Source of the DNA: an uncultured Acidobacteriota bacterium
GTDB lineage: Bacteria; Acidobacteriota; Thermoanaerobaculia; Multivoradales; JAHEKO01
NCBI GenBank assembly: GCA_963713825.1
Contig: CAVQNG010000003.1
Coordinates: 1,312,001 to 1,376,000 of the forward strand
Direction of reading: 5' to 3'
DNA: 64,000 nt
Part shown: piece after piece, positions 7,809 to 57,900 of the stretch
How positions within the stretch are numbered: the stretch's first letter is position 1
How the letters are laid out: each line of letters opens with the position of its first letter
Notes under the pieces: generated by a model
Database searches by the model: none
What the model was told of the DNA's origin: nothing
The model's input: only the letters and a program-made list of their open reading frames with translations
Translations under genes and position numbers: made by a program

Positions 7809-7863
7809 GTCCTGACTCTTCGCCCCAGATGGGTCACACAGATCTTCTGAACCTGGGCGGGAC

Positions 7864-8955
7864 CTATCGGACCTGAGCCGGTTGGAGCGTCAGCAGGACA
7901 GCCTCGGGGGGACAGCCAATCCGGAATGGGAATCCTGTGGCGCCGAGGCCTCGACTGACGACGAGTTGTGAATTGCCGGCTCGGTAGTGCCCTTCATCGA
8001 GTCGGTAACGGCTCATCCGGACCAGGACTGGTAGACCGGGAAGCCGCCACTGGCCGCCGTGGGTGTGGCCGGCCAGGACCAGGGAGACATCGCGATCCAC
8101 CGCTTCAGGAAATACATCTGGGTTGTGAGAGAGCAAGAGGCTCGCAGCCCCGTCAGGCCTCCCTTGGAGGGCCGATTCGAGCTGCGCTTCGCCGCACAGT
8201 AGGTCGTCGACACCTGCGAGCAAGAGACGGCCGCCGCCGCGTTCGAGCATCACCGAGCGATTCTGAAGGAAGCGGACTCCGCTGGACTCCAGCAGCTCCA
8301 TGAGAGCCTCGGGCTGGCCGGTGTAATGGTCGTGATTGCCGAGAACCCCGTACACACCGAGGGGAGCCGCCAGGGTTTTGTAGGTCGGAGCTGTCGGTTC
8401 CACCTCCTCCAAGCGAACGGTGGCGAAATCACCGGCCAGGAGTATGAGGTCGGGCTCCAGGGTCATGAGCCTGTCGAAGGTGCGTTCGAGCGCTCCGGGA
8501 GCCAGGAAGGGTCCGGCGTGGAAGTCCGAGATCAGCAGCAGCTTCAGGTCGGCAAAGCTGTGGTCGAGTTGTTGGATAGCGATTGAAGCCTCCGAGACCG
8601 TAAGGTCCCGCTCGAGAGCTCGACTATAGGGCCAGGCGATTCCCGGGACTCGCGGGAAGATGCGATGGCTCAGAAACTTGTTTGTGCCGCGCTCGACTCT
8701 GCGAAACCAGCCTTTTGCCGGGTTGAAGAGGTGCCGGAGTCGAAAACTGGTGGCTGAAGGTGGCCCCAGGCTCTCATGGTGAACGCCGGAAGGGTCTGGT
8801 GACGATTCTGATGACCCCTGGGTGTCCGTCGGTCGCTCAGCCGTCGGTGGAGTACTGTCAGTATCCCGCGCCTCCCTCTTGTCTCCAGTCCGAGTCGATC
8901 GAGAAGTCGGCTCTGGCGGTACCTCGCGAGGTGGCGGCAAGTCCGAAAAACGCAT
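7864..8955 (-). CDS. Metallophosphoesterase (YkuE/YaeI-like)
   Basis: Motifs SDFH, GD, GNHD, SHNPD, AGHTHGGQ. Start uncertain. Confidence 0.88.
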   Translation of the reverse strand: MRFSDLPPPREVPPEPTSRSTRTGDKREARDTDSTPPTAERPTDTQGSSESSPDPSGVHHESLGPPSATSFRLRHLFNPAKGWFRRVERGTNKFLSHRIFPRVPGIAWPYSRALERDLTVSEASIAIQQLDHSFADLKLLLISDFHAGPFLAPGALERTFDRLMTLEPDLILLAGDFATVRLEEVEPTAPTYKTLAAPLGVYGVLGNHDHYTGQPEALMELLESSGVRFLQNRSVMLERGGGRLLLAGVDDLLCGEAQLESALQGRPDGAASLLLSHNPDVFPEAVDRDVSLVLAGHTHGGQWRLPGLPVLVRMSRYRLDEGHYRAGNSQLVVSRGLGATGFPFRIGCPPEAVLLTLQPAQVR

Positions 8956-8965
8956 GGTGACGAGC

Positions 8966-10489
8966 CTACAGCTGGGCCTCGGGGCGAAGCGCCTCATCGG
9001 TGGCGCGACCCAGGCGCATGACGACTTCGGGAAAGGCTTCGATGTCCTCCAACGAAGTGCGAAAGTTGACCACGCAGATGCGCAGGGCGAATCGCTCCTG
9101 GATGATGGCGTTGGAAAGATAGATCTCGCCCGAGCGCTCGATGCGAGCCAGGATCTCCTGATTCAAATCGTTGAGATAGGAACGCACCGGCTCTGTCTCG
9201 GAACGGTCGAGGAGATCGTGCGGAACATAGCGAAAAGTCGTAATGCTCAAATTCTGCGACAGGGCCTCGATCTCAGGGTAGTCGGTCAGCAGGTCGTGCA
9301 AGGCTCTGGCCAGTTGGATGTCGTCTCGAATCATCTGCACATAGCCGGAGCGGCCCACCTGCTGCAGAGCGAGCCAGACCTTGAGGGCCCGAAAGCCGCG
9401 CGAGTTCTGCAGTCCGTATTCGAAGTAGTTCGTGGCCAGCTCGCCAAAGTGATAGTACGGCGCACCATGTGCGAAGGCACCTCGTAGCGTTTCGGGATCC
9501 CGCACCAGGGCGCAGCCTGCTTCCAAGGGAGCGTAGAGCCACTTGTGTGGATCCACCGCGACGGAATCGGCCTCCGGCATGCCCGCGAGCAGGTCAGCAG
9601 CCTCGGGAACCGCGGCGGCCAGAGCGCCGTAGGCACCATCGACGTGGAACCAGAGGTCTCTCTCACGGCAGATCTCTGCGAGCTCCGCGAGAGGGTCGAT
9701 TGCCCCAGTGCTGACGGTACTGGCCGTGCCGACCACCAGGAACGGTTGATCACCCTCCGCAACATCCTTGTCGAGTTGGCTTCTCAGATCCGCCAGGTCC
9801 AGGCGTGATTCGTCGTCGACTCGAATCGAACGTAGCGAGTCGGTCCCGAGTCCCGAGATATCCATCGCCTTGTTGATCCAGGTGTGGACCTCGGTCGAGG
9901 CGTAGACGCGCATCGGACCCCCCGGGTTGGCGTCGAGGCCGCGGCCTTGCAGGTCCCAGCTCGCCTTCGAGGTGCGGGCGGCAAGGAAGCAGACGATATT
10001 CGCCAGGTTGCCGCCGCTGACCAGCACCCCGCCAGAGCTCTCGGGATAGCCGATGAGCTCGGCGATCCAGCGCACCGTCTGGGCCTCGATCTCCGTGGCC
10101 ATCGGTGCGATGGGCCAGGCTCCGACATTGGGGTTGACCGCGGCGGCGAGCAGATCTCCCAGCATGCCGATGGGGGCAGGCGCGGAGGTGATGTAGCCGA
10201 GGAAACGGGGATGGCCGTTGAAGAGGGAGTGATCGAAGAGTAGCTTGGTGGTCTCCTCGAGTAGTGCTGTCGCGTCGGTACCGTGCTCCGGAAGTCGACG
10301 AGAGGCCTTCAGCGCGTCACGTATGGTTCCGGGGCTCTCCGCCGGGGTGACGGGTCGGTCTGGCAACGAGCCCAGTAGCTCGGCGATTCGGTCGACGACC
10401 TGATGGCCGACTCGACGGAACTCGTTGGGACTCATATCCAGTGGAGCGCAACGGTTCTTCAGTCGATCCAGTTGATCACTACTCGTCAT
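8966..10489 (-). CDS. PLP-dependent group II (aromatic-type) amino acid decarboxylase
   Basis: 'HPRFLGY', 'WFHVDGAYG', 'DPHKWL' (PLP lysine), 'RGFRALKVW'. Confidence 0.92.
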   Translation of the reverse strand: MTSSDQLDRLKNRCAPLDMSPNEFRRVGHQVVDRIAELLGSLPDRPVTPAESPGTIRDALKASRRLPEHGTDATALLEETTKLLFDHSLFNGHPRFLGYITSAPAPIGMLGDLLAAAVNPNVGAWPIAPMATEIEAQTVRWIAELIGYPESSGGVLVSGGNLANIVCFLAARTSKASWDLQGRGLDANPGGPMRVYASTEVHTWINKAMDISGLGTDSLRSIRVDDESRLDLADLRSQLDKDVAEGDQPFLVVGTASTVSTGAIDPLAELAEICRERDLWFHVDGAYGALAAAVPEAADLLAGMPEADSVAVDPHKWLYAPLEAGCALVRDPETLRGAFAHGAPYYHFGELATNYFEYGLQNSRGFRALKVWLALQQVGRSGYVQMIRDDIQLARALHDLLTDYPEIEALSQNLSITTFRYVPHDLLDRSETEPVRSYLNDLNQEILARIERSGEIYLSNAIIQERFALRICVVNFRTSLEDIEAFPEVVMRLGRATDEALRPEAQL

Positions 10490-10603
10490 GTCGGGAGTCT
10501 CCTTCTCCGGTGCCTATCGAGCGCGAATATATCCGATCCTCGAAGGAGCGAGGGCGATCGCCATACCTGTCGTTGGTCAGATCCTCCAGTAGAATCCAGC
10601 CTC

Positions 10604-12361
10604 ATGCGCCGCCTATCGCGATTCACTTTGCTGGCTTCGGTCCTACTTGCTTCGGCCTGTGGTCTTGGTGATTCCGCTGAAGAGGGAGTCGCATACTACG
10701 ACTTGGTGGGCAATCGGGGCTCGTGGGCTGCCGTAGGGACGAATCCCTCGCTCCAGCCTGTCGTCGACCCTGCAGAGGGGATTGTCTTTCTGCCGGCTGG
10801 GGCCAGCGTCGACTACCTCTTGTTCGCAGAGCCCAAGAGCACGTTGCGGGTGGAGGGAGTCACTCTGCGAGGTGCCAGCACCCGACTCGATGTGCGATTG
10901 GAGACCGACGGCGATGGAGACCGTGAGTTGGCGTCGTTCCGGCGATCAAAGGAAGGCGTAGCCGTTTCTCTTGAGCTGAAATCGCGGACAGCGGTTCGCC
11001 TCAGCCTGGCCTCAGTGGCGAGCGACGACGAACCAGGTAGTGGTGTGGTTCTCAGAAGCCCCGCGCTGTGGGCGTCTTCCGAGGTAAGGGTCTCCACACC
11101 GGCCCCGGTCGGAGAAGCAAGGCCGCGCCGCGCCAACGTTCTGATCTACCTGGTGGACACCCTGCGGTCCGATCGCCTGGGGATTCTCGGCTATCCACGG
11201 CCGATCACACCGAATATCGATCGTTTTGCCGAGAGCTCCAGCCTGTTTCTCAACGCCATTGGTCAGTCCTCGTGGACCAAGGCGTCCGTAGGATCGATCT
11301 TCACTGGGCTGTGGCCGCCGGCGCATGGCGCTATCGGCTGGAAACACAAGCTGTCGAGTGAGATCGAGACCCTGGCCGAGAGGCTCCAGGCGGATGGTTA
11401 TCGAACGGCCGCGTTCGTTACCAACCCCAATGTGGTCAGAACCTTCGGCTTCACGCAGGGCTTCGATGAATTCACTCGCAAGCTCAAGCGTCCCTCCGAT
11501 GAGGTCAACCAGATGGTCTTCGATTGGTTCGAAGGAAGAAAGGACGAGGATCCGTTCCTGCTCTATGTACACACGATGGATCCCCATGCACCGTATGCTC
11601 CACGCGAGCCCTTCAAATCGAAGTTTGCTCCGACGGCCGACGAGATCCCTCAGTGGCAGCCCCGTTGGCGTTGGCCGATGGAGGCACTGCCCTATCTGTC
11701 CGACCTCTATGATGCGGAGATCGCGTTCAACGATGCGAGCTTCGGCCAGCTGCTCGGCTTTCTCGAAGAGCGCGGGCTCTACGATGACACCTTGATCGTC
11801 TTCGTCTCCGATCATGGAGAGGAGTTCAAGGAGCACGGCCGATGGCGACATGGCGCCAACCTGCATGCGGAGACCCTGAACTTCCCGTTGATCGTCAAAT
11901 TCCCCGACCAACAGGATGGAACCACAGTCGAAACGGCTGTGCAGCACATCGATCTTCTGCCGACGATCCTCGCCAGTGTGGGTCTGGAGATCCCGGAGGC
12001 GTTGGAGGGCCGTGACCTGGCTCCCATCGCAATGGCCGGCTTGGCGCCTGGCGAGACGGTCTCGTCGGGGATCTACTCTCACTTGCGCCTGGGAAGTGGT
12101 CCGCTGAACCACAGCCTCGTGAAGGGACAGTGGAAGCTGATTCGCAAACTGCGAGACGAGGGCTGGGAGACATCGCTGTTCGATTGGCGGCAGGATCCTG
12201 CCGAAACCCGGGACCTGGTGAGTGAAAGGCCGCTTCTGGCAGCCGTGTTGTCAGCGATGATCGACGACAAGGTGGCGAGCCTCGAACAGAGCGCAGCCGA
12301 AGAGGTCGTTCTCAGCGAGGAGCTCGAAGAGGATCTCAGGGCGCTGGGCTATCTGGAGTAG
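10604..12361 (+). CDS. Sulfatase-like (alkaline phosphatase superfamily) lipoprotein, Thr-type
   Basis: Lipobox LASAC, 'VDTLRSD', 'WTKASVGSIFTG', 'DPHAPY', 'SDHGEEF', terminal 'LRALGYL'. Confidence 0.85.
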   Translation: MRRLSRFTLLASVLLASACGLGDSAEEGVAYYDLVGNRGSWAAVGTNPSLQPVVDPAEGIVFLPAGASVDYLLFAEPKSTLRVEGVTLRGASTRLDVRLETDGDGDRELASFRRSKEGVAVSLELKSRTAVRLSLASVASDDEPGSGVVLRSPALWASSEVRVSTPAPVGEARPRRANVLIYLVDTLRSDRLGILGYPRPITPNIDRFAESSSLFLNAIGQSSWTKASVGSIFTGLWPPAHGAIGWKHKLSSEIETLAERLQADGYRTAAFVTNPNVVRTFGFTQGFDEFTRKLKRPSDEVNQMVFDWFEGRKDEDPFLLYVHTMDPHAPYAPREPFKSKFAPTADEIPQWQPRWRWPMEALPYLSDLYDAEIAFNDASFGQLLGFLEERGLYDDTLIVFVSDHGEEFKEHGRWRHGANLHAETLNFPLIVKFPDQQDGTTVETAVQHIDLLPTILASVGLEIPEALEGRDLAPIAMAGLAPGETVSSGIYSHLRLGSGPLNHSLVKGQWKLIRKLRDEGWETSLFDWRQDPAETRDLVSERPLLAAVLSAMIDDKVASLEQSAAEEVVLSEELEEDLRALGYLE

Positions 12362-17630: not shown

Positions 17631-18887
17631 ATGGATGGAACCTCGGACATCGTCCTCGAACCGGAAATGCGGGTGCTTCTGCGAACCGCAAGGATCGAGC
17701 TCGGGGTGCAAGATGTCGGAGATTTGACGCAGCTCGTCCACAATGGGTTGGATTGGCGGCGCTTGCTGGAAAGGGCCGAGTGGAATGAGACTGCAGCCCT
17801 TGTGGTGCGTCACCTGGAGGCTGCTGGCCAGATCGAGGTGGTTCCGGAGGCAGTCCTCTCGAGGCTACGGACCATCAAGCTGGAGCAGCGGGTGCGGTTC
17901 TTCTTCTTCCTTCAGCCCGAGTTGCTGCGGGTGCTCGAAGGGATGGAGTCGGCGGGGTTGGAGATCATCCCTCTGAAGGGCGCCTACCTGATGAACAAGA
18001 TCTACCCGGACGTGAGCCTCCGGCCAGTGGGTGACCTGGATCTCCTGGCGCGAGAAGAGGATCTGCCCCGTGCGATGCAGACTCTCTCCCAGCTGGGGTA
18101 TCGATCCAAGGCGGGCGAGGAGCCGCTGCCCAGTGGCGCGATCGACGACCACCATCACTGTCCCAGAGTGCTGAGCCCCGATGGGTCCGTCGAGCTCGAG
18201 CTGCATCGTCATGTCGTCCGACGACGGACTCCTCTCTATTTTCCTGTCGAGCGATTCTGGGAGCGCAGCGCAGTTGGTGAAATCAAGGGGCGAACGGTGA
18301 GAGTGCTGGCCGGCGAGGATCTGGTGACCCACCTCTGCTGCGCCTTCTTTCTCGACCGTCGAAGGAGAGCTCGAGGGTACGGTGCCTTGCGGCAGTTGAT
18401 GGATCTGTCGGAGTCGGTCCGTCATTGCGAGCCCGACATCGATTGGGAGAGGTTGATCCAGGAGAACGCAGGCGGGGCTCTGCAGGCTCCTCTCTACGTT
18501 GCACTGCGAGCGGCACGAGAGTTGCTGGAGGCGCCGGTGCCAGCTGAGTTTCTGGACAACTTCAGGCCGAGGAAGTTCGACGACGACGTATTCGGCCACT
18601 TCCTGCGTTACAAAGTTCTCAACCCTGGAATGTGGTTTTTCCACGAGCTCGTGGACCCGCACGACAATCATTGGTGGAACATGAGCAAAGCCGCCATTCA
18701 CAGGCTATTACCGCCGACTTCCTATCTACAGAACAAGTATGGCCCGGGGGACGACAGGGCGGAAGGGCAATTGCTCCGGAGGCACTTGCGGGATACTTTC
18801 CGCACGGCTCTGGCGACTTGTCGAAGGCCGGGCTCGATGATTCGGGAGCTGCGAGCCGACTTCTGGATGAATCAGATCCAGCTCTGA
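17631..18887 (+). CDS. Nucleotidyltransferase family protein (NTP_transf_5-like)
   Basis: 'PLKGAYL', 'YPDVSLRPVGDLDLL' (DxD), 'ELELHRH', 'RQLMDL'. Confidence 0.85.
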   Translation: MDGTSDIVLEPEMRVLLRTARIELGVQDVGDLTQLVHNGLDWRRLLERAEWNETAALVVRHLEAAGQIEVVPEAVLSRLRTIKLEQRVRFFFFLQPELLRVLEGMESAGLEIIPLKGAYLMNKIYPDVSLRPVGDLDLLAREEDLPRAMQTLSQLGYRSKAGEEPLPSGAIDDHHHCPRVLSPDGSVELELHRHVVRRRTPLYFPVERFWERSAVGEIKGRTVRVLAGEDLVTHLCCAFFLDRRRRARGYGALRQLMDLSESVRHCEPDIDWERLIQENAGGALQAPLYVALRAARELLEAPVPAEFLDNFRPRKFDDDVFGHFLRYKVLNPGMWFFHELVDPHDNHWWNMSKAAIHRLLPPTSYLQNKYGPGDDRAEGQLLRRHLRDTFRTALATCRRPGSMIRELRADFWMNQIQL

Positions 18888-18903
18888 TTCTTCAGGTCGG
18901 GTG

Positions 18904-19731
18904 CTAGGTGGCTACCCTCATTGTCTCGAGGACCAGCTCGCATGTCGCGCCGAGTCGGCTAGAGGTCAATTCGAAACAGGGGACTCTGGTGGCGATATCG
19001 ACTGCGACATCCAAGCCGCTGCCTGGGTGGGCCAGTGGATTGAGGGCGTTGGAGTAGAGCCTGACGGCGGCTTTCGCGGTTCCGATCTCCTGGACCCTTG
19101 GCTGTTCAGCGTTGGGATCGAAGCGGGGGAAGAACACACCCGCCAAAGGTACGGGTGTGTCCACAGGCGGTTGCGCCAGGCAACGGACCGGTACGTGCAG
19201 GGGATCCTGACCCTGGAGGAGATCGGCAGGAGCCGCGTAGGGAATCGGCGGATTCGATTTGAGACAGATCGCTCGACTGAAGGGGGCCACGGTCAAGTCT
19301 GTCGGATTGATCGGCCCCAGCTCATCGCTCGAGTAGCGAAGACCGTGCTGTAGAAGTGCCCAGGACAGCGTCGACTTGCCGTGTCCTCGAGGGGCGGGGA
19401 AGAGGAACGATCGTTCGTCGAGAGTCACGACCGCGGCATGCTGGAAGTAGAGGTCCGGTCTCAGGAGTTGCAGCTGCACGACGAGATCGTCATCGAAGTG
19501 CATCAGCAGATCTGCCGATCTCTGGACGCAGATCACATCTGTATTTCGTTGGATGCGAAGCCCTGAAGAGGTCGAGTCATCGATGGAGTAGGACAGGTCG
19601 GGTGTAGCGTCGGGAACCTCGAGGTGCCCGTAGCTTGCCCTGAGCACAGAGATGCCATCTTCGCAGTCGCCACGAGTCTCGATGACTCGATCCAGGATGC
19701 GAATGACCAGGGAGGGTGGTGTGACGCTCAA
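18904..19731 (-). CDS. HPr-kinase-related peptide kinase
   Basis: 'HAAVV', Walker A 'APRGHGKSTL', 'YSSDELGPI'. Short, lacking the HprK N-terminal domain. TTG start. Confidence 0.85.
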   Translation of the reverse strand: MSVTPPSLVIRILDRVIETRGDCEDGISVLRASYGHLEVPDATPDLSYSIDDSTSSGLRIQRNTDVICVQRSADLLMHFDDDLVVQLQLLRPDLYFQHAAVVTLDERSFLFPAPRGHGKSTLSWALLQHGLRYSSDELGPINPTDLTVAPFSRAICLKSNPPIPYAAPADLLQGQDPLHVPVRCLAQPPVDTPVPLAGVFFPRFDPNAEQPRVQEIGTAKAAVRLYSNALNPLAHPGSGLDVAVDIATRVPCFELTSSRLGATCELVLETMRVAT

Positions 19732-19795
19732 GATCCTTCGCCCTTAAACTCAATGATCGAATCAGGGATCTGGTCTAGGGAATGAAGCGACTCGG

Positions 19796-19829
19796 ACAAA
19801 GAAAAACCGGCGCGCCGAGCGCGCCGGTT
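19796..19829 (-). terminator. Intrinsic terminator between precursor peptide and kinase genes
   Basis: Minus strand reads AACCGGCGCG-CTCGG-CGCGCCGGTT followed by TTTCTTTG. Confidence 0.85.
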
Positions 19830-19911
19830 CATGTACAAACCTGCCTTCGCAGGCATCGCTAATCCGAGCCAAACCTGGGCCGTTGATCAGCCCGCGAGGC
19901 GAGATCGTGAT

Positions 19912-20061
19912 CTAGCGAGTCGGTGACGGCTTGTCCGTCCTGGTCGGTGCACCCGAGGACGCATTGGCCTTACCAGGCTTGGCCGCAAGCGTCAGAATTA
20001 CGGGCGTCGCGTAGGCAGCCGCCTTCAGTACCTCTCTGCGTGTTCTCTTCTTTTCTGCCAT
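19912..20061 (-). CDS. Putative RiPP precursor, 49 aa (MAEKKRTRREVLKAAAYATPVILTLAAKPGKANASSGAPTRTDKPSPTR)
   Basis: Strong SD AAAGGAG before ATG 20061; YxxPxI leader motif; sits between the PqqD/RRE and kinase genes. Confidence 0.8.
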   Translation of the reverse strand: MAEKKRTRREVLKAAAYATPVILTLAAKPGKANASSGAPTRTDKPSPTR

Positions 20062-20082
20062 AACCGCTCTCCTTTCTTCCTT

Positions 20083-20128
20083 AACAGTACTCCCTCGTAC
20101 TGTTGCTACCTTTTCTAAAAAGGTAGCA
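20083..20128. promoter_or_regulatory. Two back-to-back perfect inverted repeats upstream of the precursor gene
   Basis: AACAGTAC-N6-GTACTGTT (20083-20104) and TGCTACCTTTT-N3-AAAAGGTAGCA (20104-20128). Confidence 0.6.
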
Positions 20129-20140
20129 GAGCCTACATCA

Positions 20141-20401
20141 CTAGGATAACAGAAGTCCAATCTCCTCGAGCTTCTCGAGCGTATCGGCTACATCTTGCCC
20201 AGCAGTTTCGGCATCGACCTGGAAGGTCGTCGCCAACTCCTCGGCGATCTGCTGCCGGTTGTGTTCGCCGTCACACAGTTGCCAGATGAAGCTCGCTGTC
20301 TGGTTCAATTGATGGATCTGTTCGGACTCTTTGTCCATGACCACCATCTCGCCTTCGACGATGCGTTCTTCGAATTCTGCGCGTCGGGTCGGATTCTTCA
20401 T
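20141..20401 (-). CDS. PqqD family RiPP recognition element (RRE)
   Basis: 86 aa; 'IHQLNQTASFIWQLCDG', 'IAEELATTFQVD', 'DVADTLEKLEEIGLL'. Confidence 0.92.
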   Translation of the reverse strand: MKNPTRRAEFEERIVEGEMVVMDKESEQIHQLNQTASFIWQLCDGEHNRQQIAEELATTFQVDAETAGQDVADTLEKLEEIGLLLS

Positions 20402-20550
20402 AACCTTTGTCCCAACTCCGAATGGAGTTCTGACTCAATAGAGAGTGTAGGAAGCCAGGGTTGATCGGTCAACCTTATCGAGAACTCTCTATATTGCCTT
20501 TTTTGGTACCCGGTTTTCTCTAGACAGCTTGGCTGGGTGAGACGGTACCG

Positions 20551-21420
20551 TCAACAGGTGTCGTAGGAGAGCCAGCCAATCAGCTCGCCACTGGCTCCAA
20601 CAATCCGCTCGTGCTGGTAGCACTCGCCGGCAGGAGGTCGCCGGCTGCGAGGTGTGAAGATCGGGCTCCAGCCATCGTGAAGGCCAATCGCAGGCCCCTT
20701 GAGAGGGGTCAGGGCCCGGACGACAGATCCTTGACGAGTCGCCACGCATTCGAAGCCTGCGGCCTGAGAATTTACGGTTCGGACCCCAACTCTCTGGTCA
20801 TCGATCGACCACGCCTTGACGGCTTTGGCCGCGGTGCCCGGAGTCTGCGCCAGGCAGCTTTCGATGGCTGGAAGGAGATCGAAGAGTCGTTTCGACCAAT
20901 CGCCAGGGGGCTTCTCGTCGAGAACGGCGATCGGCAGACCGGCGAGGTCGGCGTCGATCTCTTCGATCAGCGCCTGGTCCTCCTCGATCAGCGGCTCGTC
21001 AGTGCTGTCTACCTGCGACTCCGACCAACTCTCGGTACTTGGATCCGAGGTCGAGTCGCAACAGCCCAGAAGAACGCTTCCATCGGGCAGCGAGAGACTG
21101 ACACTGTAGGGGTAATCGCGATCGACCATCGTGTCCGAGCAGGGCCGGTGGGTAACGAAGGCCACCAGGTCTCCTTCACCGAATTTGCCACGCCAGGCGA
21201 AGAGTCCGGCGTAGTCCAGCCGCTGGAAGGTGCCTTCGAGGGTTTGGCCGGCGGGTTCTTCAGGAGTCGCCCATCCGGCGTTCTCGCTATCGATCGCCAA
21301 GCCCCAGAAGGGCTCGTTGCCATTGCATTTGAACTCGGAGGGCATAGAGGCATGAGCCGCCGAGGCCAGCATGATGGCGCAAGACAAGATCGAGGCGGTC
21401 GGAAATGTAATTGAAGGCAA
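20551..21420 (-). CDS. Secreted COG3650-like protein
   Basis: 'GNEPFW' and 'CSDTMVDRDYP...GCC' motifs. Start uncertain. Confidence 0.7.
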   Translation of the reverse strand: MPSITFPTASILSCAIMLASAAHASMPSEFKCNGNEPFWGLAIDSENAGWATPEEPAGQTLEGTFQRLDYAGLFAWRGKFGEGDLVAFVTHRPCSDTMVDRDYPYSVSLSLPDGSVLLGCCDSTSDPSTESWSESQVDSTDEPLIEEDQALIEEIDADLAGLPIAVLDEKPPGDWSKRLFDLLPAIESCLAQTPGTAAKAVKAWSIDDQRVGVRTVNSQAAGFECVATRQGSVVRALTPLKGPAIGLHDGWSPIFTPRSRRPPAGECYQHERIVGASGELIGWLSYDTC

Positions 21421-48303: not shown

Positions 48304-49773
48304 TCAATTGAGATAGCCGAGGGCCCGCAGAGCATTGAGGGTCTCTTCGGAGTAGGCCTCCGATTCTGGATCGGCGACACCCGTTTCGGGCGTGCTCTCC
48401 ATCCACGTCGAAAGAGCCTGCCAGAGTCGATCGAACTCCTCTTCATGCTGGCCCGCGAGATTCTCGGCTTCCAGTGGGTCGGACTGTAGATCGTAGAGCT
48501 CGAAAGCTGGCGCCAACTGTCGGTCGTTTCTCTCGACAGCAGGATGGAAGACGAGCTTCCAACGGCCGTCTTGGACGGAGAAGTAGTGACGCCAGAGCAT
48601 CTGTCCACCGCCGGCCTCCGAGAAGGCGTACCGAAACGGCTCTAGTGCCGCTGTTTCGACGGCTCCCATCGGGCCGAGGAACGGTGTCAGGCTGGATCCC
48701 TCGAGCCCTTCTGGTCCTGCCGTGATCTGCAGGAGATCGCGAAGGGTCGGGTACAGATCCAGCAACTCGGCCGGGTGATCGACCCGCCGGCCTGCACGGG
48801 CCACCCCAGGGTAGGTGATGAAGAGCGGCACATGGGCCGTCGTGTTGTACGGCTCGCGCCCATGTTCGAACAGCTCGTCGTGCTCTCCCAGGCCCTCACC
48901 GTGATCGGAGGTGAAGATCACCAGGGCTCCTTCGAGCAGGCCGAGCCCTTCGAGATGGTCGAGGATGGCGCCGATGTGGGAGTCCGTTACCAGGATGTTG
49001 GCATCGTACTTGGCGATGTAGGAGCCGAGCCGGCGTTCGTCGCCCAGAGCTCTTGCCGGGGGCAGGTCGGCCCCGATCGACTGATCTTGGGTGTCGAAGG
49101 AGTCGCCGAGAAACGGGTCGGAGGCACCCTCCGGTAGCAGATAGGGAGCGTGGGGATCGGAGTAGTGAAGCCAGACGAACAACCGCTCCGAGTCGGCGTG
49201 GCGCTCGAGAGCGGGAATGGCCAGCTGATTGACCAGGGGGGCACCGACCCATTTGCGGTGCTCGACCGGATCGTCACTGACAGCACCTCCCAGCCTCCAG
49301 GTTTCCAGAAACTCGTCGAAGCCCCGATTCCAACCCAGCTCTGCCGAGAGGACGGCATTGGAGACCACGCCCAGGGTGCTGTAGCCAGCAGACTGGAAGA
49401 GCTCGGGCAGGGTCAGGTACTCGTCCGGAATCTGCTGGGCCGCCCTGTGGGTCAAACCCGTTGTCTTGGGATAGCGGCCCGTAAAGATGGAGGCCAAAGA
49501 AGGTCCGGTCTTCGGCCATTGTGCGACTGCGCGGGCAAACGTCACTCCCTGCTCTGCCAACTTGTCGAGGGCCGGAGAAGTCTGTCGGGGATAGCCGTAG
49601 ATTCCCATGTGGTCGGCACGCAGTGTGTCGACCGTGATCAGGAAGACTCTCTTTGGAGGTTCTGGCTCGGAGGGCTGCCGGTTGCAAGCCGCGAGGCCGA
49701 GGAGCAGGATCGCGGTGAGGCATCCGGCGACCCTCGAGTAGGCGCGCTTTGTTGGGGTTCTGGTGAGTCTCAT
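48304..49773 (-). CDS. Sulfatase-like lipoprotein, Thr-type
   Basis: LAAC lipobox, 'VDTLRADH', 'TGPSLASIFTG', 'DPHAPY', 'SDHGE', 'LRALGYL'. Confidence 0.88.
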   Translation of the reverse strand: MRLTRTPTKRAYSRVAGCLTAILLLGLAACNRQPSEPEPPKRVFLITVDTLRADHMGIYGYPRQTSPALDKLAEQGVTFARAVAQWPKTGPSLASIFTGRYPKTTGLTHRAAQQIPDEYLTLPELFQSAGYSTLGVVSNAVLSAELGWNRGFDEFLETWRLGGAVSDDPVEHRKWVGAPLVNQLAIPALERHADSERLFVWLHYSDPHAPYLLPEGASDPFLGDSFDTQDQSIGADLPPARALGDERRLGSYIAKYDANILVTDSHIGAILDHLEGLGLLEGALVIFTSDHGEGLGEHDELFEHGREPYNTTAHVPLFITYPGVARAGRRVDHPAELLDLYPTLRDLLQITAGPEGLEGSSLTPFLGPMGAVETAALEPFRYAFSEAGGGQMLWRHYFSVQDGRWKLVFHPAVERNDRQLAPAFELYDLQSDPLEAENLAGQHEEEFDRLWQALSTWMESTPETGVADPESEAYSEETLNALRALGYLN

Positions 49774-51170
49774 AGATAACCGAGGCTCCTCAGCTCCTCG
49801 AGCTCATCTTCATCCAAGATGGCGGTCTCGCCGTCCTGACCCGACTGTCGCAGCTCACTCATGGCCCTCTGGTGCCCGACGAGCTGCTCGGCCATCTGTC
49901 CGCAGAGATCGACGCAGGCTGCCGTTCGAGGTGTTTGCTCCTCGGGGTCGGTGCCGAGGTCGTAGAACTCCAGGTGGCCATCGTGAAAACGAATCAGCTT
50001 GTGGGTACTGCTCCGCACTGCGACTGCGTCGGCGCTCTCGGCGAAGATCCAACGCTCGGCTGCGGGCTCACCCAGCATGAGCGGGACCAGGCTTTGGCCT
50101 TGCGCCTGTGGCACCGGGGGAAGGTTGGCGAGCTCCAACAGGGTCGGCATCAAATCGACGAGCCCAGCGGGAGCATCGACCTTTGGGATCGGGGTGCGGC
50201 GGCTCTCCGGCAGACGGAACACCAGGGGAACCCGGATCACCTCGTCGTAGGGAGCGAAACTGTGCAATAGCTTGTCGTGCTCGAGGAAGCCTTCGCCATG
50301 ATCGGACGTCACGACGACGATCGTGTTTTCGTAGAGATCCATTGCCTGAAGGGCACGCATGAGATCGTCGATGGCGGCATCGACGAAGGCCACTTCCTGG
50401 TCGTAGCGCGCGACGAGTGCGTCGAGGTCGGACTCTGACTTGAGGGTCTCGATCCAACCTGCAACACGGTTCCCTCGCTGGGGTGGCTCTGAAGTCATGC
50501 GCAGCGGGCCGAATGCTTCCTGCTTTCCCTCGAGTCGGTTGGTGTAGGGCCAGTGGACATCCAGGTAGTGCAGGTAGGCGAAGAAGGGAGCTGTGCTGGC
50601 GCCCTCGAGTTGCTTCAGGAGCTTTTGGTTCAACTTGCCGGCACCCAGGCCTCGAACAGCCTCGAAATGGTCGAACCCTTGAGCAAAGCCGAAACGGGAC
50701 TGGAGATGGACCTGGTTGAGAACACCGATGGTCGAGTAGCCGGCCGCCTGGAACCTCTCGGCCAGAGTGTCGTATCCCTCGTAGAGAATATCGGTCCTGT
50801 ATGAGTCACCCTCCTGAATACCGACGCGATCGATGCCGTGCTGACCTGGATAGAGCGACGTGAAAAGAGTGGCGATCGAAGGCTTGGTCCAGGTGGAGTG
50901 CGCGAAGGCGGACGTGAAGGTCACGCCCTCCTCTGCCAGTTGGTCGATCGCCGGGGAGGTCGGTAGACCGTAGCCACCGATTCCGAGGTGATCGGCTCGC
51001 AGGGCGTCGATCAGGATCACCAGAACATTGGGTGGTGGCCCCGGATCGATCTCCTGGGCGTCGCGGCCGCAGGCGAGCAGTGACAGTAGGACGAGCGCTG
51101 TGAGCCAGCCTGGGCGGATGTCGCCGATCGGCCAAAACGGACTTGGGAACCTCGACGTCTTGGAGGTCAT
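49770..51170 (-). CDS. Sulfatase-like lipoprotein, Thr-type
   Basis: LLAC lipobox, 'IDALRADH', 'TKPSIATLFTS', 'DVHWPY', 'SDHGE', 'LRSLGYL'. Confidence 0.88.
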   Translation of the reverse strand: MTSKTSRFPSPFWPIGDIRPGWLTALVLLSLLACGRDAQEIDPGPPPNVLVILIDALRADHLGIGGYGLPTSPAIDQLAEEGVTFTSAFAHSTWTKPSIATLFTSLYPGQHGIDRVGIQEGDSYRTDILYEGYDTLAERFQAAGYSTIGVLNQVHLQSRFGFAQGFDHFEAVRGLGAGKLNQKLLKQLEGASTAPFFAYLHYLDVHWPYTNRLEGKQEAFGPLRMTSEPPQRGNRVAGWIETLKSESDLDALVARYDQEVAFVDAAIDDLMRALQAMDLYENTIVVVTSDHGEGFLEHDKLLHSFAPYDEVIRVPLVFRLPESRRTPIPKVDAPAGLVDLMPTLLELANLPPVPQAQGQSLVPLMLGEPAAERWIFAESADAVAVRSSTHKLIRFHDGHLEFYDLGTDPEEQTPRTAACVDLCGQMAEQLVGHQRAMSELRQSGQDGETAILDEDELEELRSLGYL

Positions 51171-51361
51171 TCGCCTGCCTGCTCCTGATCTGGGATGATC
51201 GTTTTGTGGTTGCGGGACGCTCGGCGTCCGAATTGATCCAAGCAGCCGTCAGCATATCACCGGGTCTCGAGGCGATGGTGGCGTCGAGGGCGGGCGGGGC
51301 ACCCGCCCGGTGGGGCCTTCCAATAGAATCGATGGTGCTCGACGGCGAGGCAAGCTAAGGA

Positions 51362-52750
51362 ATGCACAGGTCAGCACAAATCTTGGGATTGGTCATTGTG
51401 ACCCTGGTCGCCGGCTGTGGTCGCGAGGAAGTGACTCAGGGTCCACGCCTCCAGAGCTCGGCTGCGGGCTGGAACCTGATTCTGATCAGTGTAGATACCG
51501 TGCGGGCCGACCGCTTGGGCGCCTACGGATATGCCGAGCGCCCATCCAGTCCCAACATCGATGCGCTGCTGGCGTCAGGAGCCAAATTTCAACGTGCCAT
51601 GGCTCCCAGAGCCCTCACCTGGCCTTCGATGGCCTCGGTGCTCACGGGGCTCTATCCATCCGGCCACGGGCTGATCTCGAACGGGTACGAGTTCTCCGAC
51701 GCCACCCGCACGTTGCCGAAGATCTTGGGTGATGCCGGGTACCAGACGGGGGCTGTGCTCAGCAATATGTGCCAGGCGAACCACCAGGGATGGGAGAGCT
51801 TCAAGTGCACGGGAGGTAACGACACCCGCGTCAACCGGGTGGCGAAGCAGTGGATCGATGGGATCGAAGACGGGCGGCCATTCTTCCTCTGGGCGCACTA
51901 TTTTGGTGCCCACGCTCCGTACTACAACGGCGGCATCGTGGCCCGCCGGGTGCTGAATCAGTACTACGAAGGTCCGATCGCAGCTAAGAAGAACATGCTC
52001 AACCGGGTGATGCGTGAAGGCCTCGAGCTGAGCGAGGACGACTTGACTCAGTTGGATGCGGTCTATGACGCGGCGGTGATGGGAACCGATCAGTTTGTCG
52101 GTGAGCTGCTGGACTATCTGCGTGAGGCTGGCCGATTGGACAGCACACTGATTGTCTTCGTGGCGGATCACGGGGAGGACCTCTACCAGCACAACGGCTA
52201 CCTCTACCACGCCTGTTCCGTGTACCAGTCGTCCTTGCACGTGCCGCTGGGTTTCGTAGCCCCAGGCGTGCTTCCCGCAGGGGCGACTGTCTCCCAGACC
52301 GTCGAGTTGATCGATGTGCTGCCTACCATTCTGGAGCTGCTCGCACTGGACGAAGAGGGTGAGCTCCACGGCAGGTCCCTGATTCCCTATCTGGAGTGGC
52401 CCGACTCCAGTATTGAAGGTGAGCCGGCTTTCTCCGAATACGACGACACTCGGATTCACACCGTTCAAGTCGGTGACTGGAAGCTTGTAGACAACCCGGA
52501 TGCGGTCCTGCCGGTCTGTTTCGCGGGCGTCCCGGAGGACTTCTACCCGATTGCGGAGGTGGAGCTCTACGATCTCTCCGAGGATCCGGGCGAGACCGTC
52601 AATCTGGCTTCGAAGTACCCAGAGAAGGTGGCTGAGATGCGGGCATTGATTCGGCAGCGCTTTGCGTCGCTGCCCCGCAACATCGAGCATCAGGAGATCC
52701 CAGAGGAGCTGAAAGAGCAACTGGAGGCTCTTGGCTACGTGGCCAACTGA
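51362..52750 (+). CDS. Sulfatase-like lipoprotein, Thr-type
   Basis: VAGC lipobox, 'VDTVRADR', 'TWPSMASVLTG', 'AHAPY', 'ADHGE', 'LEALGYV'. Confidence 0.88.
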   Translation: MHRSAQILGLVIVTLVAGCGREEVTQGPRLQSSAAGWNLILISVDTVRADRLGAYGYAERPSSPNIDALLASGAKFQRAMAPRALTWPSMASVLTGLYPSGHGLISNGYEFSDATRTLPKILGDAGYQTGAVLSNMCQANHQGWESFKCTGGNDTRVNRVAKQWIDGIEDGRPFFLWAHYFGAHAPYYNGGIVARRVLNQYYEGPIAAKKNMLNRVMREGLELSEDDLTQLDAVYDAAVMGTDQFVGELLDYLREAGRLDSTLIVFVADHGEDLYQHNGYLYHACSVYQSSLHVPLGFVAPGVLPAGATVSQTVELIDVLPTILELLALDEEGELHGRSLIPYLEWPDSSIEGEPAFSEYDDTRIHTVQVGDWKLVDNPDAVLPVCFAGVPEDFYPIAEVELYDLSEDPGETVNLASKYPEKVAEMRALIRQRFASLPRNIEHQEIPEELKEQLEALGYVAN

Positions 52751-55103: not shown

Positions 55104-55697
55104 CTATTCGATGGGTAGCCCCAGCTTTTCCCTTACCGTGGGCTCGAGACGCGTCATGCCCGCCGCCTTGCCCACTGCCAGTGCCTCTTCGGGGCTCATG
55201 CCGTCGATGTAGTAAGCCTTCATCGCGAACAGGCCTCCAACCCGATTGCCACTGGCGCAGTGCACCATCACGGGCGACTCCGCCTTGTCGAGGGCTTCAG
55301 CCAGAGCTCGGGCCTTGTCCTCGGTCATGTCGGCAGAGCCATCGATGGGAATCTCGATGTAGGCCATTCCCAAGCCCCGAACCTGTTCGGGGTCCGTATT
55401 GTCCTTCTCTTCAGGTTGTCGAAGGTTGATGACGGTCTTGTAGCCGTCCTCGTGAGCGCGTTCGAGCTGGGCCGGCGTGGGTTGACCGCCCGTCAGCAGC
55501 GCGTCACCCTCGAACGGAGTGCGTCCGTTTCGAAGTCGGTCTTCGGGCCGCAGGGTTTCGACGATGGCGCTCTCCTGCATCTCTGGTGCAGTGCTCTGCG
55601 TCTGCGAAGGCGTCGTCTGCTCGACGTCGGAGGTGCACGCGACGGTCAGCAGCGTCAGGCTTGTCAAGAAGATCTTCTGGGTCTTCATGCTGCTCAT
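55104..55697 (-). CDS. DUF442/PTP-like sulfurtransferase or phosphatase lipoprotein
   Basis: 'GGQPT', 'GYKTVINLR', 'HCASGNR'; lipobox TVAC. Confidence 0.85.
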   Translation of the reverse strand: MSSMKTQKIFLTSLTLLTVACTSDVEQTTPSQTQSTAPEMQESAIVETLRPEDRLRNGRTPFEGDALLTGGQPTPAQLERAHEDGYKTVINLRQPEEKDNTDPEQVRGLGMAYIEIPIDGSADMTEDKARALAEALDKAESPVMVHCASGNRVGGLFAMKAYYIDGMSPEEALAVGKAAGMTRLEPTVREKLGLPIE

Positions 55698-57805
55698 GGG
55701 AGTCCTTTCTCTTCTGCGCGGGCTCCAAGAATAGTCGAATCGAGGCACAGGGAACAGCCTTTCCGCGCCACGGTCAAGCCACTTTCGGGCACTCGAGTCG
55801 CAGGTTGTCGAAGGCCCCTCAGAAGTCGGGTCCGGTCAACCTCGTAGACCCGCACCAGAGGCACGGGTCCGAATGGCCCCTGGCGCATCTGTGGGGTCCG
55901 GAAGACCTCGACGAAGCCGCGAGGCGGAGTGGGTGCCGCGGTGGAGCTCTGCCCAGATGCAACAGCTGCAAACGCGAGTCGGGCGCCCACGGTGGCCATG
56001 AGTCGATCCAGCTGGATCGGTCGCCTGCCGTCCGACTCCTCGGGTCCGAGAAAGATCTGAGGATCGATGGTTGCAATCCGAGCGGCATGCTCGAGTTTCA
56101 GAAGATCGGTCTCCACCACCACCCAGCGAACTCGACGGCGCTGCAGCAGGGAGGCGATCTCATCGTCGTCCTCCAGGAAGTAGAACCGCACTGCGTCGTG
56201 AAAGCTGGGTTGACCGTGCGAGCCGAACGGGCTGGCGATCGTTGCTTTCTGTCCAATCCACTCGATCCAGTGCCCAGCGCTCCAAGGCCCCAGAACCGAT
56301 TCTTCAGCCGGTTCTTCAGGGTGTTTCCACGCGCTGGGTGGTGGGGCGGCAGAACGGAGAAAGAGGCAGACGCTGTCCATGCTGGACGCCACGACGGGCG
56401 CGGGGCGTCCCAAGAAACGCAGCCCTGCAAAGCCCGGCACCGGAACATAGGCCGCCAGGCAGGGCAAGAAGATCAGGCCGACGAGAAGGTAGGCTCGCCG
56501 AGGGCGGAGATCCACAGCGGCCTGTGAAGACCAACGGAACATGGCGAAGGCGGTAACAGACGCAACCGCGAACGCCGCGCCATGACTGTAGCGGGCCTGA
56601 AAGAGAGCCAGTCCCAGCGAGTAGGTGGCCCAGGTCAGGAGAAACGCTGTTGCCATCCGCGTCCTGCTGTCTCGCAGGAGCCACAGACCAATGATCGGGA
56701 TGAGCAGTGGGATCAAGGACAGGCGCACCAGAAGAGGCCTGAGGTCGGGCTGGCCGAAGAGCGACAGTAGTGGCCGGGATTCCGCGATGGACTGAAGCCA
56801 GGGCTCGGAGCGACCGAGAAAGGTCAGACCCGCCAGAAGAGGCGGCACGCAGATAGGTAGAAGAACAGTGAGGGCAAGGGCACTGATGCAAGCCAGAGCC
56901 AATACCCGTGACCGGCCCTGCTGCGATCTGCCGGTGGCTAGGGCAAGCAGGCTACCGGCCAGTGACAATCCCAGGAGTGCAGCGATTTGTAGCCAGGACA
57001 GTCCTTCATAGGAAGCTCCGTCCGAGGCGGTCCAGACACTCCCCAGGACGAAAGGGAGGACGATGATGGAGGCGCCAAGTCCTCCGAGGGCGATGCTTGA
57101 CCCGAGGCGTGAGGTGGACTCGGAGCGCCACCCGGCAGCCGCCGCCGATGCGACTCCGACCACCAGGAAGAGCCCTATGTGGATGAGAGCCCCCGGCCAG
57201 GTCAGCATCAGGGCGCTCAGCCAGGCGGCAGCCTCGATGGAGGTCTGTCGGACCGGCACGGGGTCGGATTGAGGTCGGGCCAAGGCACCGGCTATTGCTG
57301 CGAGCACACCGAGAGCAGCCAACTCGATCAGTGGATCGTGGTCCGAGGCACCCAGGAGGGTGTAGCGCACCACTCCGGGAAGCAACGCTGCCAGCGCCGC
57401 GCCGAGAACGGCTGTCCGGCGTCCAGCGATCCGTCTGAGCAGCATCGCCAGGATGAGAATCTGCAGGACGCCGAGGGCCGGGGGCAGGATGGCACTCGCT
57501 AATTCGACAGCCGACTCAGCACCTCCGGGCAGTACCTTGGCCAGCGTGGCCAGAAGGAAGTCGTACAGGGGTGCCCACACCAGGGGCGCCCCGTCAGGGA
57601 CATTCATGAGATGGTCGAAGTCAGGTACCCGTGGCCAGTCCAGCATGGTCAGCCAAGCACGGCGCAGATGGTAGTAGGCGTCTGTGCCGTCCAGAGTAAT
57701 TCCACCCGCCGTGAAGACCGAGCCCCAGGTTCCGAGACGGAGAACGGTTGCGACCAGTGACACCAGAATGAGGCTGATTGCGTAGCGCTGGCGACTCATC
57801 TCCAT
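55694..57805 (-). CDS. STT3/AglB-like oligosaccharyltransferase
   Basis: 'DAYYHLRR', 'GASDHD', multi-TM region, 'SIAE', soluble domain 'PWSAGHWIEWIGQKATIASPF' at the WWDYG position. Confidence 0.75.
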   Translation of the reverse strand: MEMSRQRYAISLILVSLVATVLRLGTWGSVFTAGGITLDGTDAYYHLRRAWLTMLDWPRVPDFDHLMNVPDGAPLVWAPLYDFLLATLAKVLPGGAESAVELASAILPPALGVLQILILAMLLRRIAGRRTAVLGAALAALLPGVVRYTLLGASDHDPLIELAALGVLAAIAGALARPQSDPVPVRQTSIEAAAWLSALMLTWPGALIHIGLFLVVGVASAAAAGWRSESTSRLGSSIALGGLGASIIVLPFVLGSVWTASDGASYEGLSWLQIAALLGLSLAGSLLALATGRSQQGRSRVLALACISALALTVLLPICVPPLLAGLTFLGRSEPWLQSIAESRPLLSLFGQPDLRPLLVRLSLIPLLIPIIGLWLLRDSRTRMATAFLLTWATYSLGLALFQARYSHGAAFAVASVTAFAMFRWSSQAAVDLRPRRAYLLVGLIFLPCLAAYVPVPGFAGLRFLGRPAPVVASSMDSVCLFLRSAAPPPSAWKHPEEPAEESVLGPWSAGHWIEWIGQKATIASPFGSHGQPSFHDAVRFYFLEDDDEIASLLQRRRVRWVVVETDLLKLEHAARIATIDPQIFLGPEESDGRRPIQLDRLMATVGARLAFAAVASGQSSTAAPTPPRGFVEVFRTPQMRQGPFGPVPLVRVYEVDRTRLLRGLRQPATRVPESGLTVARKGCSLCLDSTILGARAEEKGLP

Positions 57806-57900
57806 GTCTGAACCCAATCGGAATCGGCGAATGCAAGGCTACACCGTCCGAATCTCCTGGACCAACACGAACTTGCACCGTTAGAAGCAACAGAGGGGCA

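Follow-up and report, generated by a model that had tools for sequence, protein, structure and literature searches.

A cyclase-free cassette of a PqqD-family recognition element, an HPr-kinase-related kinase and a nucleotidyltransferase with a Tat-signal-like precursor peptide in an uncultured Acidobacteriota bacterium

The 64,000-nt stretch analysed here, hereafter the window (contig CAVQNG010000003.1 of assembly GCA_963713825.1, positions 1,312,001 to 1,376,000, from an uncultured Acidobacteriota bacterium), carries a compact cassette that consists of genes for a PqqD-family recognition element (RRE) of peptides that are made on the ribosome and modified after translation (RiPPs), a 49-aa precursor peptide and an HPr-kinase-related P-loop kinase, all on the minus strand, and a convergent gene for a nucleotidyltransferase (Table 1). 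These four genes, with a Shine-Dalgarno site and an intrinsic terminator, had been described from the letters alone in an initial annotation, and both their coordinates and their description were borne out by sequence and profile searches. Beyond that annotation, we found that the leader of the peptide is twin-arginine-like, and that the sole conserved residue of its "core" is one Ser located directly after the leader. The gene-level features of the cassette, namely a conserved leader, a variable core, and a linked RRE with linked enzymes, follow the RiPP pattern as far as can be judged from sequence, and the cassette probably makes an uncharacterised kind of modified secreted peptide.

Table 1. 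Coordinates of the cassette genes and associated sites within the window.
Feature	Coordinates	Strand	Remarks
Sigma-70-like promoter candidate	20444..20472	-	5' of the PqqD gene; TTGACC, 17 nt, TACACT; 9 of 12 consensus positions
PqqD-family RiPP recognition element (RRE), 86 aa	20141..20401	-	PF05402, 71.9 bits
Two conserved hairpins between the PqqD and peptide genes	20082..20127	-	directly before the Shine-Dalgarno site
Shine-Dalgarno site AAGGAG	20069..20074	-	spaced 7 nt from the peptide-gene ATG; conserved in orthologues
Precursor peptide gene, 49 aa	20061-19912	-	ATG internal to an 82-aa frame
Ser36 codon, proposed phosphorylation site	19954..19956	-	conservation; role by analogy with BsfK
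Intrinsic terminator or attenuator between the peptide and kinase genes	19804..19830	-	12-bp stem with 9 G-C pairs, then UUUUUCUUU
HPr-kinase-related P-loop kinase, 275 aa	18904..19731	-	TIGR04352, 78.2 bits, under the cut-off of 200
PF14907 (NTP_transf_5) nucleotidyltransferase, 418 aa	17631..18887	+	161.1 bits; convergent with the kinase gene

Residues 1-32 of the window peptide form a leader that resembles a twin-arginine signal, with TRREVLK, a hydrophobic stretch containing YATPVIL, and PGKA, while residues 37-49 form a variable tail. The same layout recurs in its family: [ST]RRxF/V-L-K is followed by a hydrophobic stretch with a lasso-like YxxPxI/L, by PxxA, by a nearly invariant Ser at +4, and by a hypervariable tail of low complexity. 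Peptide identity within the genus is 84-86%, as compared with 63-70% for the kinase, 68-78% for the nucleotidyltransferase and 76-83% for PqqD. Comparison of leader codons 1-32 with those of four same-genus loci revealed 12, 12, 8 and 11 synonymously changed codons, with one non-synonymous change in each case, a codon-position pattern that shows purifying selection on the leader as a protein. The short open reading frame (ORF) is a real, conserved gene. That it might instead be a frame open by chance, or a leader ORF with a purely regulatory role, with the three enzymes acting on some other target, is an idea to which its shortness, its lack of a name in Pfam and NCBIfam and the terminator behind it lend some colour; it is, however, exceedingly improbable in view of the selection acting on the protein, the 1279 representative clusters of homologues described below, the presence of the ORF beside the same enzymes across phyla, and the strong Shine-Dalgarno site.

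The family to which the peptide belongs is large and has no name in any library, there being no model for it in Pfam or NCBIfam. A word-indexed profile search yielded 59 proteins of 42-90 aa, which are "hypothetical" wherever the source names them and none of which has a Pfam domain; at a threshold of E<=0.001 an exhaustive hidden Markov model (HMM) search yielded 1279 representative clusters, of which 581 also passed E<=1e-10, and the best 150 of these matches measure 42-153 aa. In an alignment of 44 members R9, Y17, P20, L23, T24 and L25 are invariant and conservation reaches 90% or more at R8, K13, V21, A27, P29, A32 and S36, with none after S36. The Ser four residues past the PxxA site is found in 70 of 72 distinct members; the tails of these members comprise 10-52 residues, are rich in G, S, P, K and R, and contain neither Asp nor Glu in 16 cases. 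A further set of 140 representatives includes 137 with RR and 131 with the YxxP core, and the Ser is at the same position in 128 of the 130 that could be parsed. No paralogue of the window peptide was found among 112,218 frames of its own genome, where the next-best match has an E-value of 0.12. Contigs from four RNA libraries of four studies are confined to positions 19250-20416, a segment that runs from PqqD through the peptide gene and the terminator into the 5' part of the kinase gene. In one of them PqqD and the leader are 95-99% identical to those in the window and the tail is unalignable, with 129 letters in place of the 123 at 19829-19951; a second contig ends at the same point, 19952. 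The contig with the replaced tail comes from a related strain, and the tail therefore varies at the strain level, as would fit a variable tail behind a fixed leader.

The association between the peptide and the three enzymes extends well beyond the genus. A kinase search that covered the genome itself and 60 relatives gave a match in 12 of the 61, and full-length orthologues were recovered from four same-genus genomes (63-70% identity), from G009 (44%) and from G035 (36%). A homologous short ORF lies between PqqD and kinase in all six complete orthologous loci (a fifth same-genus locus is interrupted by a contig end, and thus stands outside the six); the conserved peptide ORF that the initial annotation had called for between RRE and kinase is present not only there, but also in loci of other phyla that were found through the peptide alone. 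When one genome per species was scanned for the peptide motif only, 16 loci were obtained, five of which are relatives already known from the kinase search, while the other eleven are labelled Rokubacteria, Vicinamibacterales, Binatia, Lysobacterales, beta- and other Proteobacteria and, in one case, Enterobacteriaceae, the latter being a mislabelled-looking bin. By orthologue-built profiles, the peptide is adjoined by the kinase in 12 and by PqqD in 12 of these 16 loci, and by PF14907 in 13 when Pfam is used in addition. Three of the four loci without an adjoining kinase are in genomes that hold a same-clade kinase elsewhere (241.5, 85.7 and 318.3 bits), one of these distant kinases sitting beside PqqD and a second precursor. 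At L039:5968-9952, a kinase gene and a PqqD-PF14907 fusion (552 aa) follow three precursor genes in tandem, which share their leader and differ in their tails, in a cassette that adjoins methyltransferase and GT4 genes.

The PqqD protein exceeds the cut-off of PF05402 (23.4 bits) by a wide margin, and its top NCBIfam match is the lasso B1-type model NF033530 (47 bits, cut-off 70). On TIGR04353 it scores 30.1 bits (cut-off 35), and TIGR04352 (HprK-related kinase A) is the best NCBIfam match of the kinase (E 5.5e-22), which has no match in Pfam. Among the four profiles that had been suggested for verification, PF05402 and PF14907 (cut-off 31.2) are thus matched above their cut-offs, whereas TIGR04352 and TIGR04353 are not. 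The two latter families define the HPr-rel-A system, in which HprK-related kinase A is accompanied by a "PqqD family peptide chaperone"; it is catalogued and has, to our knowledge, no characterised product. A third PqqD-domain gene of the same genome, at C3:1450913-1451077 (L015:6722-7129; 135 aa, PF05402 42.9 bits), has an OPT oligopeptide transporter on one side and an NYN/OST-HTH protein on the other, and neither a kinase nor a radical SAM gene adjoins it.

In the kinase, G116-x-G-K-S and S135-D-E are invariant in 13 sequences from several phyla. Its structural model has a predicted local distance difference test score (pLDDT) of 90.9, and the top Foldseek matches of this model are phosphoenolpyruvate carboxykinases (PEPCK; TMq 0.6-0.67, E ~2e-7), with HprK/P 1kkl_B at rank 39 (E 2.3e-4); we take this PEPCK-like fold to be the fold class of HPr kinase. 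From sequence alone, the kinase profile gave only weak P-loop matches to solved structures, with the HprK structures at E 0.15-0.75. As modelled, this putative kinase combines the PEPCK/HprK fold with a P-loop and an acidic SDE motif. None of ten scanned kinases from peptide-linked loci reaches the TIGR04352 cut-off (42.8-93.6 bits, as opposed to 303-412 bits for true members), and genome G065 holds both a kinase of the peptide-linked type and a true TIGR04352 member (333 bits), for which reasons we regard the clade of the cassette kinase as a sister of HprK-related kinase A rather than a part of it. In the nucleotidyltransferase, K116-G117 and D135-x-D137, corresponding to the G...DxD motif of the pol-beta type, are invariant in 13 sequences, and the core of its model (pLDDT 79.2) matches the pol-beta-type proteins JHP933, MenT1, ANT(2'')-Ia and LnuA. 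The match is restricted to the catalytic core, with low TM over the whole chain, and a search with the sequence against solved structures yielded none.

The promoter candidate is a consensus match alone, one of two such sites found where 1.1 were expected. The stems of both hairpins between the PqqD stop codon and the Shine-Dalgarno site of the peptide gene are preserved in all five same-genus sequences, and the second was also flagged in the scan that gave the promoter candidate; little covariation is seen because the sequences are close, their divergence being too small for covariation testing, and the hairpins may act as an RNA processing or stability element. The terminator hairpin has an energy of -26.4 kcal/mol (z -2.26), with 4 of 200 shuffles folding equally well. 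The terminator scan as a whole gave four terminator-like sites for 3.7 expected, so that only the strength of the 19830-19804 site and its conservation in orthologues count; the hairpin and the T-run are also present in the orthologous loci L017-L020. One RNA-library contig spans the terminator, so that some read-through is possible. We propose that this terminator after the peptide gene would keep the precursor in excess over the enzymes. On the 5' side of PqqD, on the same strand, lies a gene for a 289-aa protein (20551-21420) with an N-terminal signal-like stretch and without a Pfam or NCBIfam family; its synteny extends to the four same-genus loci (63-72% identity) and not to L021 and L022, from which it is absent, and it is probably outside the cassette. 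Elsewhere in the window there are a homologue of STT3-type oligosaccharyltransferases (PF02516, 40.9 bits) and four sulfatase genes, at 55694-57817 (-), 48304-52750 and 10403-12361, for which no link with the cassette was seen.

Tat (twin-arginine translocation) signals follow the consensus [ST]-R-R-x-F-L-K, continue with an uncharged hydrophobic stretch, and have small residues at -3 and -1. The regular expression [ST]RR.[FLIVM][LIVM][KR] matches 70 of the 72 family members, and a PxxA-type site (P-x-x-small) is present in 66. The best weak HMM matches of the family are all to Tat-signal models (TIGR01409, the formate dehydrogenase Tat region, the Rieske Tat signal and MelC1), each of them under its cut-off; the window peptide scores 14.3 bits on TIGR01409 (cut-off 16.7), aligning across positions 2-29 of the 29 in the model. 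TatC was found in all 11 carrier genomes tested, and there is no linked protease or exporter in the window cassette. It is on the layout of the leader, the presence of TatC and the missing protease and exporter that we base the proposal of export through Tat.

We consider the best-supported reading to be a system that modifies a peptide with phosphorylation as the primary chemistry, and we give somewhat better than even credence to a fuller version of it, in which the cassette would be a cyclase-free, RRE-dependent system for phosphorylation of a Ser, extension of the phosphate, and Tat export. The PqqD/RRE would bind the conserved leader of the 49-aa peptide through the YxxPxI/L-T-L stretch, and the HprK-like kinase, aided by the RRE, would phosphorylate Ser36, which is the sole conserved hydroxyl residue and is located four residues past the PxxA signal-peptidase-like site. 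This role of Ser36 is suggested by analogy with the lasso kinase BsfK, which acts on Ser3 of its precursor in a reaction accelerated by the RRE BsfB1, as described in PMC10368454. The PF14907 nucleotidyltransferase would then extend the phosphate with a sugar or a nucleotide to give a phosphodiester-linked group, and the leader would double as a twin-arginine signal, such that the modified peptide would exit via Tat and be cut by signal peptidase I after Ala32. The cassette could do without a protease and a transporter of its own because, on this proposal, Tat and signal peptidase I would supply both. We infer the chemical steps, their order, the binding by the RRE and the export from gene content, conservation and comparison with lasso systems.

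Several observations weigh against this proposal. The nucleotidyltransferase gene is convergent with the operon and not co-transcribed with it. The RNA-library contigs are a weak hint of expression which cannot prove transcription; the libraries may hold DNA, and none of the contigs falls on the nucleotidyltransferase or on most of the kinase, although contigs cannot show absence. At L044 the peptide is accompanied by a PF14907 fragment, and a genome search detected neither kinase nor PqqD; two ORFs considered for these roles showed no similarity in hhalign (probability 0.15 and 0.17). When the YxxPxL residues of BsfA were replaced by Ala, phosphorylation persisted according to PMC10368454, and therefore the kinase need not depend on the leader motif. 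The strict Tat expression matches only 105 of the 140 further representatives, and the Tat HMMs stay under their cut-offs, with E<=1 in 6 of 44 members on TIGR01409 and in 1 of 44 on PF10518; the presence of TatC says little, since 11 of 14 control genomes also have it. Finally, the tails are of low complexity and differ widely from one another in length and charge, in which they do not resemble typical bioactive cores.

Some of these points would sit well with a reading in which the chemistry is the same, but the N-terminal half is merely an RRE-binding leader or a membrane anchor with no working Tat signal, the product being intracellular, membrane-held or otherwise exported. Besides the sub-cut-off Tat scores, this reading is favoured by the lasso B1 model as the top NCBIfam match of PqqD, and by the fact that the most invariant residues (Y17, P20, L23, T24 and L25) form a recognition motif like the lasso-type YxxPxL described in PMC10368454. 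It leaves unexplained, however, why R8, R9 and K13 are invariant or nearly so, though lasso leaders need none of these, why the full layout of n-, h- and c-regions with the PxxA site is maintained in nearly all members, and why a protease or transporter linked to the cassette is absent from the window. In addition, the substrate-like proteins of canonical HPr-rel-A loci share the layout, one of them scoring 18.4 bits on PF10518. We view this reading as unlikely, though as a serious contender.

The surroundings of the cassette in other genomes bear on a further possibility, namely that the peptide is a carrier or anchor, its glycosylated phospho-Ser being joined to, or priming, an extracellular polysaccharide to form a small proteoglycan-like molecule. 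Five of the 16 loci (L039, L041, L042, L043 and L044) are found amid genes for sugar transferases, glycosyltransferases, flippases, sugar-nucleotide enzymes and AsnB-type amidotransferases; the tails are of low complexity, rich in G, S, P and K, with G-S-G as the sole conserved site; and PsmN adds hexose onto phospho-Ser, as reported in PMC8498205. The neighbours of the window cassette are nevertheless not polysaccharide genes, nor are those of L034, L036, L040 and L045, and a glycosyltransferase is not a constant member of the cassette, all of which makes this possibility quite improbable. Returning to modification with Tat export, we may also, with considerable reserve, entertain a broader form of it, which has perhaps a minor chance of being right: across a widespread, unnamed class of peptides and small proteins destined for export (no fewer than 1279 clusters, together with the 140-245 aa HPr-rel-A substrates), a single N-terminal element would be docking site for the RRE and Tat signal at once, PqqD would act as a Tat "proofreading" chaperone until the kinase and the PF14907 transferase have built a phosphodiester-linked phospho-sugar or nucleotide on the Ser past the cleavage site, and in some lineages this group might join the peptide to exopolysaccharide.

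Lasso peptide biosynthesis had to be considered separately, since the initial annotation had linked the cassette to lasso clusters while reporting that the window holds neither a lasso cyclase nor any B2 protease, radical SAM or YcaO enzyme. Indeed, none of 41 long window ORFs (the longest non-overlapping among 100 listed) belongs to the Asn_synthase, Transglut_core3, radical SAM or YcaO families, and six-frame genome searches placed all matches of PF13471 (C5 and C32 only) and PF00733 (C11, C3:1403221, C5, C32, C14, C1 and C3:1604610) outside the window. A lasso-type cluster is present on contig C5 at ~366400-373400 (locus L014:4421-11358), with an identical copy on C32, a duplication that may be an assembly artefact. 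It includes B2 (NF033537, 89.9 bits), PqqD, an HprK-like kinase (272 aa), a PF14907 gene (403 aa), and a cyclase-like AsnB homologue in a 704-aa frame, the best family of which is NF033535 (347.5 bits, under the cut-off of 525), and is surrounded by sugar-modification genes (PglD-, DegT- and PglF-like). Directly after the cyclase there is a 53-codon precursor ORF (L014:11197-11358), whose leader fits exactly YxxPxLxxxGxxxxxTx, the lasso leader motif given in PMC10368454, and which fits the lasso-precursor arrangement of Thr (or Ile/Val) at -2 and Asp/Glu at core position 7-9, with a core that begins, unusually, with Lys. Because its own canonical precursor adjoins its cyclase, the C5 cluster is self-contained. 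An earlier interpretation of this locus as a mere polysaccharide-linked AsnB set was dropped after the canonical lasso precursor was found there.

A lasso cyclase and protease, which the initial annotation had named as a potential challenge if they processed the window peptide, thus do exist elsewhere in the genome, but processing of this peptide by them was not borne out. For the window peptide to be a lasso precursor matured in trans by the C5/C32 cyclase and B2, one could point to the joint presence in one genome of B2, PqqD, HprK-like kinase, cyclase-like AsnB homologue and PF14907, and to the YxxPxI of the window leader. The C5 cluster, however, already has a 53-aa precursor with a canonical leader; the window peptide lacks Thr (or Ile/Val) at -2 together with Asp/Glu at core position 7-9, with no Thr at -2 ahead of any ring-capable start, and 16 of the 72 family tails have neither of the two acidic residues. 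Moreover, B2 (PF13471) is above cut-off in only one of five cassette-carrying relatives and was not found in the carriers G009 (95% complete) and G035 (97% complete), a lasso cyclase is above cut-off in none of the five, and, among the remaining Asn-synthase genes in the genome, the two with the strongest matches are ordinary asparagine synthases (TIGR01536, 423.5 and 281.9 bits, above cut-off). We therefore hold maturation in trans to be very improbable. The cassette does share with lasso clusters a PqqD-type RRE and a YxxPxL-like leader motif (Y17 and P20 invariant, then I/V and L), but it fails as a lasso cluster because it has no cyclase, no B2 and no ring-capable precursor.

Our literature search found no paper on a non-lasso system of PqqD and HPr kinase, or on a RiPP precursor with a twin-arginine signal; the main text of the RRE-Finder paper contains neither "kinase" nor "HPr", and its supplementary novel-cluster figures could bear on priority. 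If modification and Tat export proceed as proposed, the catalogued and unexplained neighbourhoods of HprK-related kinase, PqqD and nucleotidyltransferase would gain a substrate in the form of a large peptide family that is unnamed in libraries, lasso tailoring enzymes would be seen to work as a stand-alone pathway, and the very few RiPP-like precursors that use a general export signal over a protease and exporter of their own would be joined by one with a Tat-type signal. With three or four genes, the cassette is small, and is open to simple co-expression with a mass-shift readout.

Comparison with known systems shows that the cassette resembles the HPr-rel-A system in having the same three enzyme types in one neighbourhood (in L067 a substrate-like gene is followed by PqqD, the kinase and a nucleotidyltransferase-like gene), and in that the substrate-like genes carry a similar RR...PV(I/L)(M/L)T(L/V) leader. 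It differs in that its kinase and PqqD remain under the HPr-rel-A cut-offs (78.2 vs. 200 and 30.1 vs. 35 bits), while the canonical PqqD of L067 scores 59, and in that the canonical substrates are proteins of 140-245 aa, as opposed to window-type peptides of ~50 aa. Of 401 genomes sampled from one class, 31 hold canonical HPr-rel-A loci (TIGR04352 >=200 bits). A loose regular expression applied to such loci revealed an ORF with a Tat-like leader resembling that of the window peptide in 16 of 30, for example at 7829-8377 (-) in L067 (G065:C6:19000-33000), L068-L096 being further canonical loci; 14 of the 16 ORFs have 140-245 aa, the one in L088 looks spurious, and the one in L086 has only 39 aa. 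Eight of 13 aligned ORFs share the motifs C-[ST]-x-S-G-x-L-S-G-N-L-S and PG[YF]W, none of 12 had a Pfam family above cut-off, and the one tested against NCBIfam had no match there. From their sequences, these ORFs look like an unnamed substrate family of the HPr-rel-A system.

TorD, DmsD and NapD are cytoplasmic proofreading chaperones that bind Tat signals. By analogy only, the PqqD protein of the cassette would likewise be a cytoplasmic protein bound to a twin-arginine signal until maturation is complete; it has the unrelated PqqD winged-helix fold, and maturation would consist of covalent side-chain modification and not of cofactor insertion. The bufferins, MNIO-modified RiPPs with thiooxazoles, carry Sec signal peptides that are dispensable for modification (PMC11626156), and so exemplify reliance on a general export signal and not on a leader protease and exporter dedicated to the peptide, as proposed here for the window peptide. 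They differ in using Sec rather than Tat and in their chemistry, and in the window peptide the signal-like part is the sole conserved part and the likely RRE site.

Among lasso systems, the paeninodin and pseudomycoidin clusters of Firmicutes employ an HPr-kinase homologue on a precursor Ser, and their nucleotidyltransferase is sometimes fused to another maturation protein; in pseudomycoidin biosynthesis PsmK phosphorylates a Ser and the nucleotidyltransferase PsmN adds one or two hexoses to the phosphate (all according to PMC8498205). There the residue acted upon is the C-terminal Ser of a lasso core, and the role of the enzymes is confined to tailoring, whereas the window enzymes would be the sole chemistry and would act on a leader-adjacent target. 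The lasso cluster bsf (BsfA, B1, K, B2, C, N and D) from Bradymonas sediminis, as described in PMC10368454, shares with the cassette a discrete PqqD-type RRE, an HprK-like kinase, a predicted nucleotidyltransferase and a leader of the YxxPxL type, as well as a target Ser near the junction of leader and core (Ser3 in bsf, the proposed Ser at +4 in the window peptide). Unlike bsf, the window cassette has no cyclase, B2 protease or ABC exporter, its leader has an invariant RR...K and PxxA, and its tail is hypervariable and often incapable of forming a ring. The new element is a cyclase-free system of RRE, kinase and nucleotidyltransferase with a Tat-signal-like precursor family unnamed in libraries, best filed as a variant of the lasso tailoring toolkit and of the HPr-rel-A neighbourhood, and the cassette would seem to be derived from, or sister to, the set of kinase and nucleotidyltransferase that tailors paeninodin-, pseudomycoidin- and bsf-type lasso peptides.

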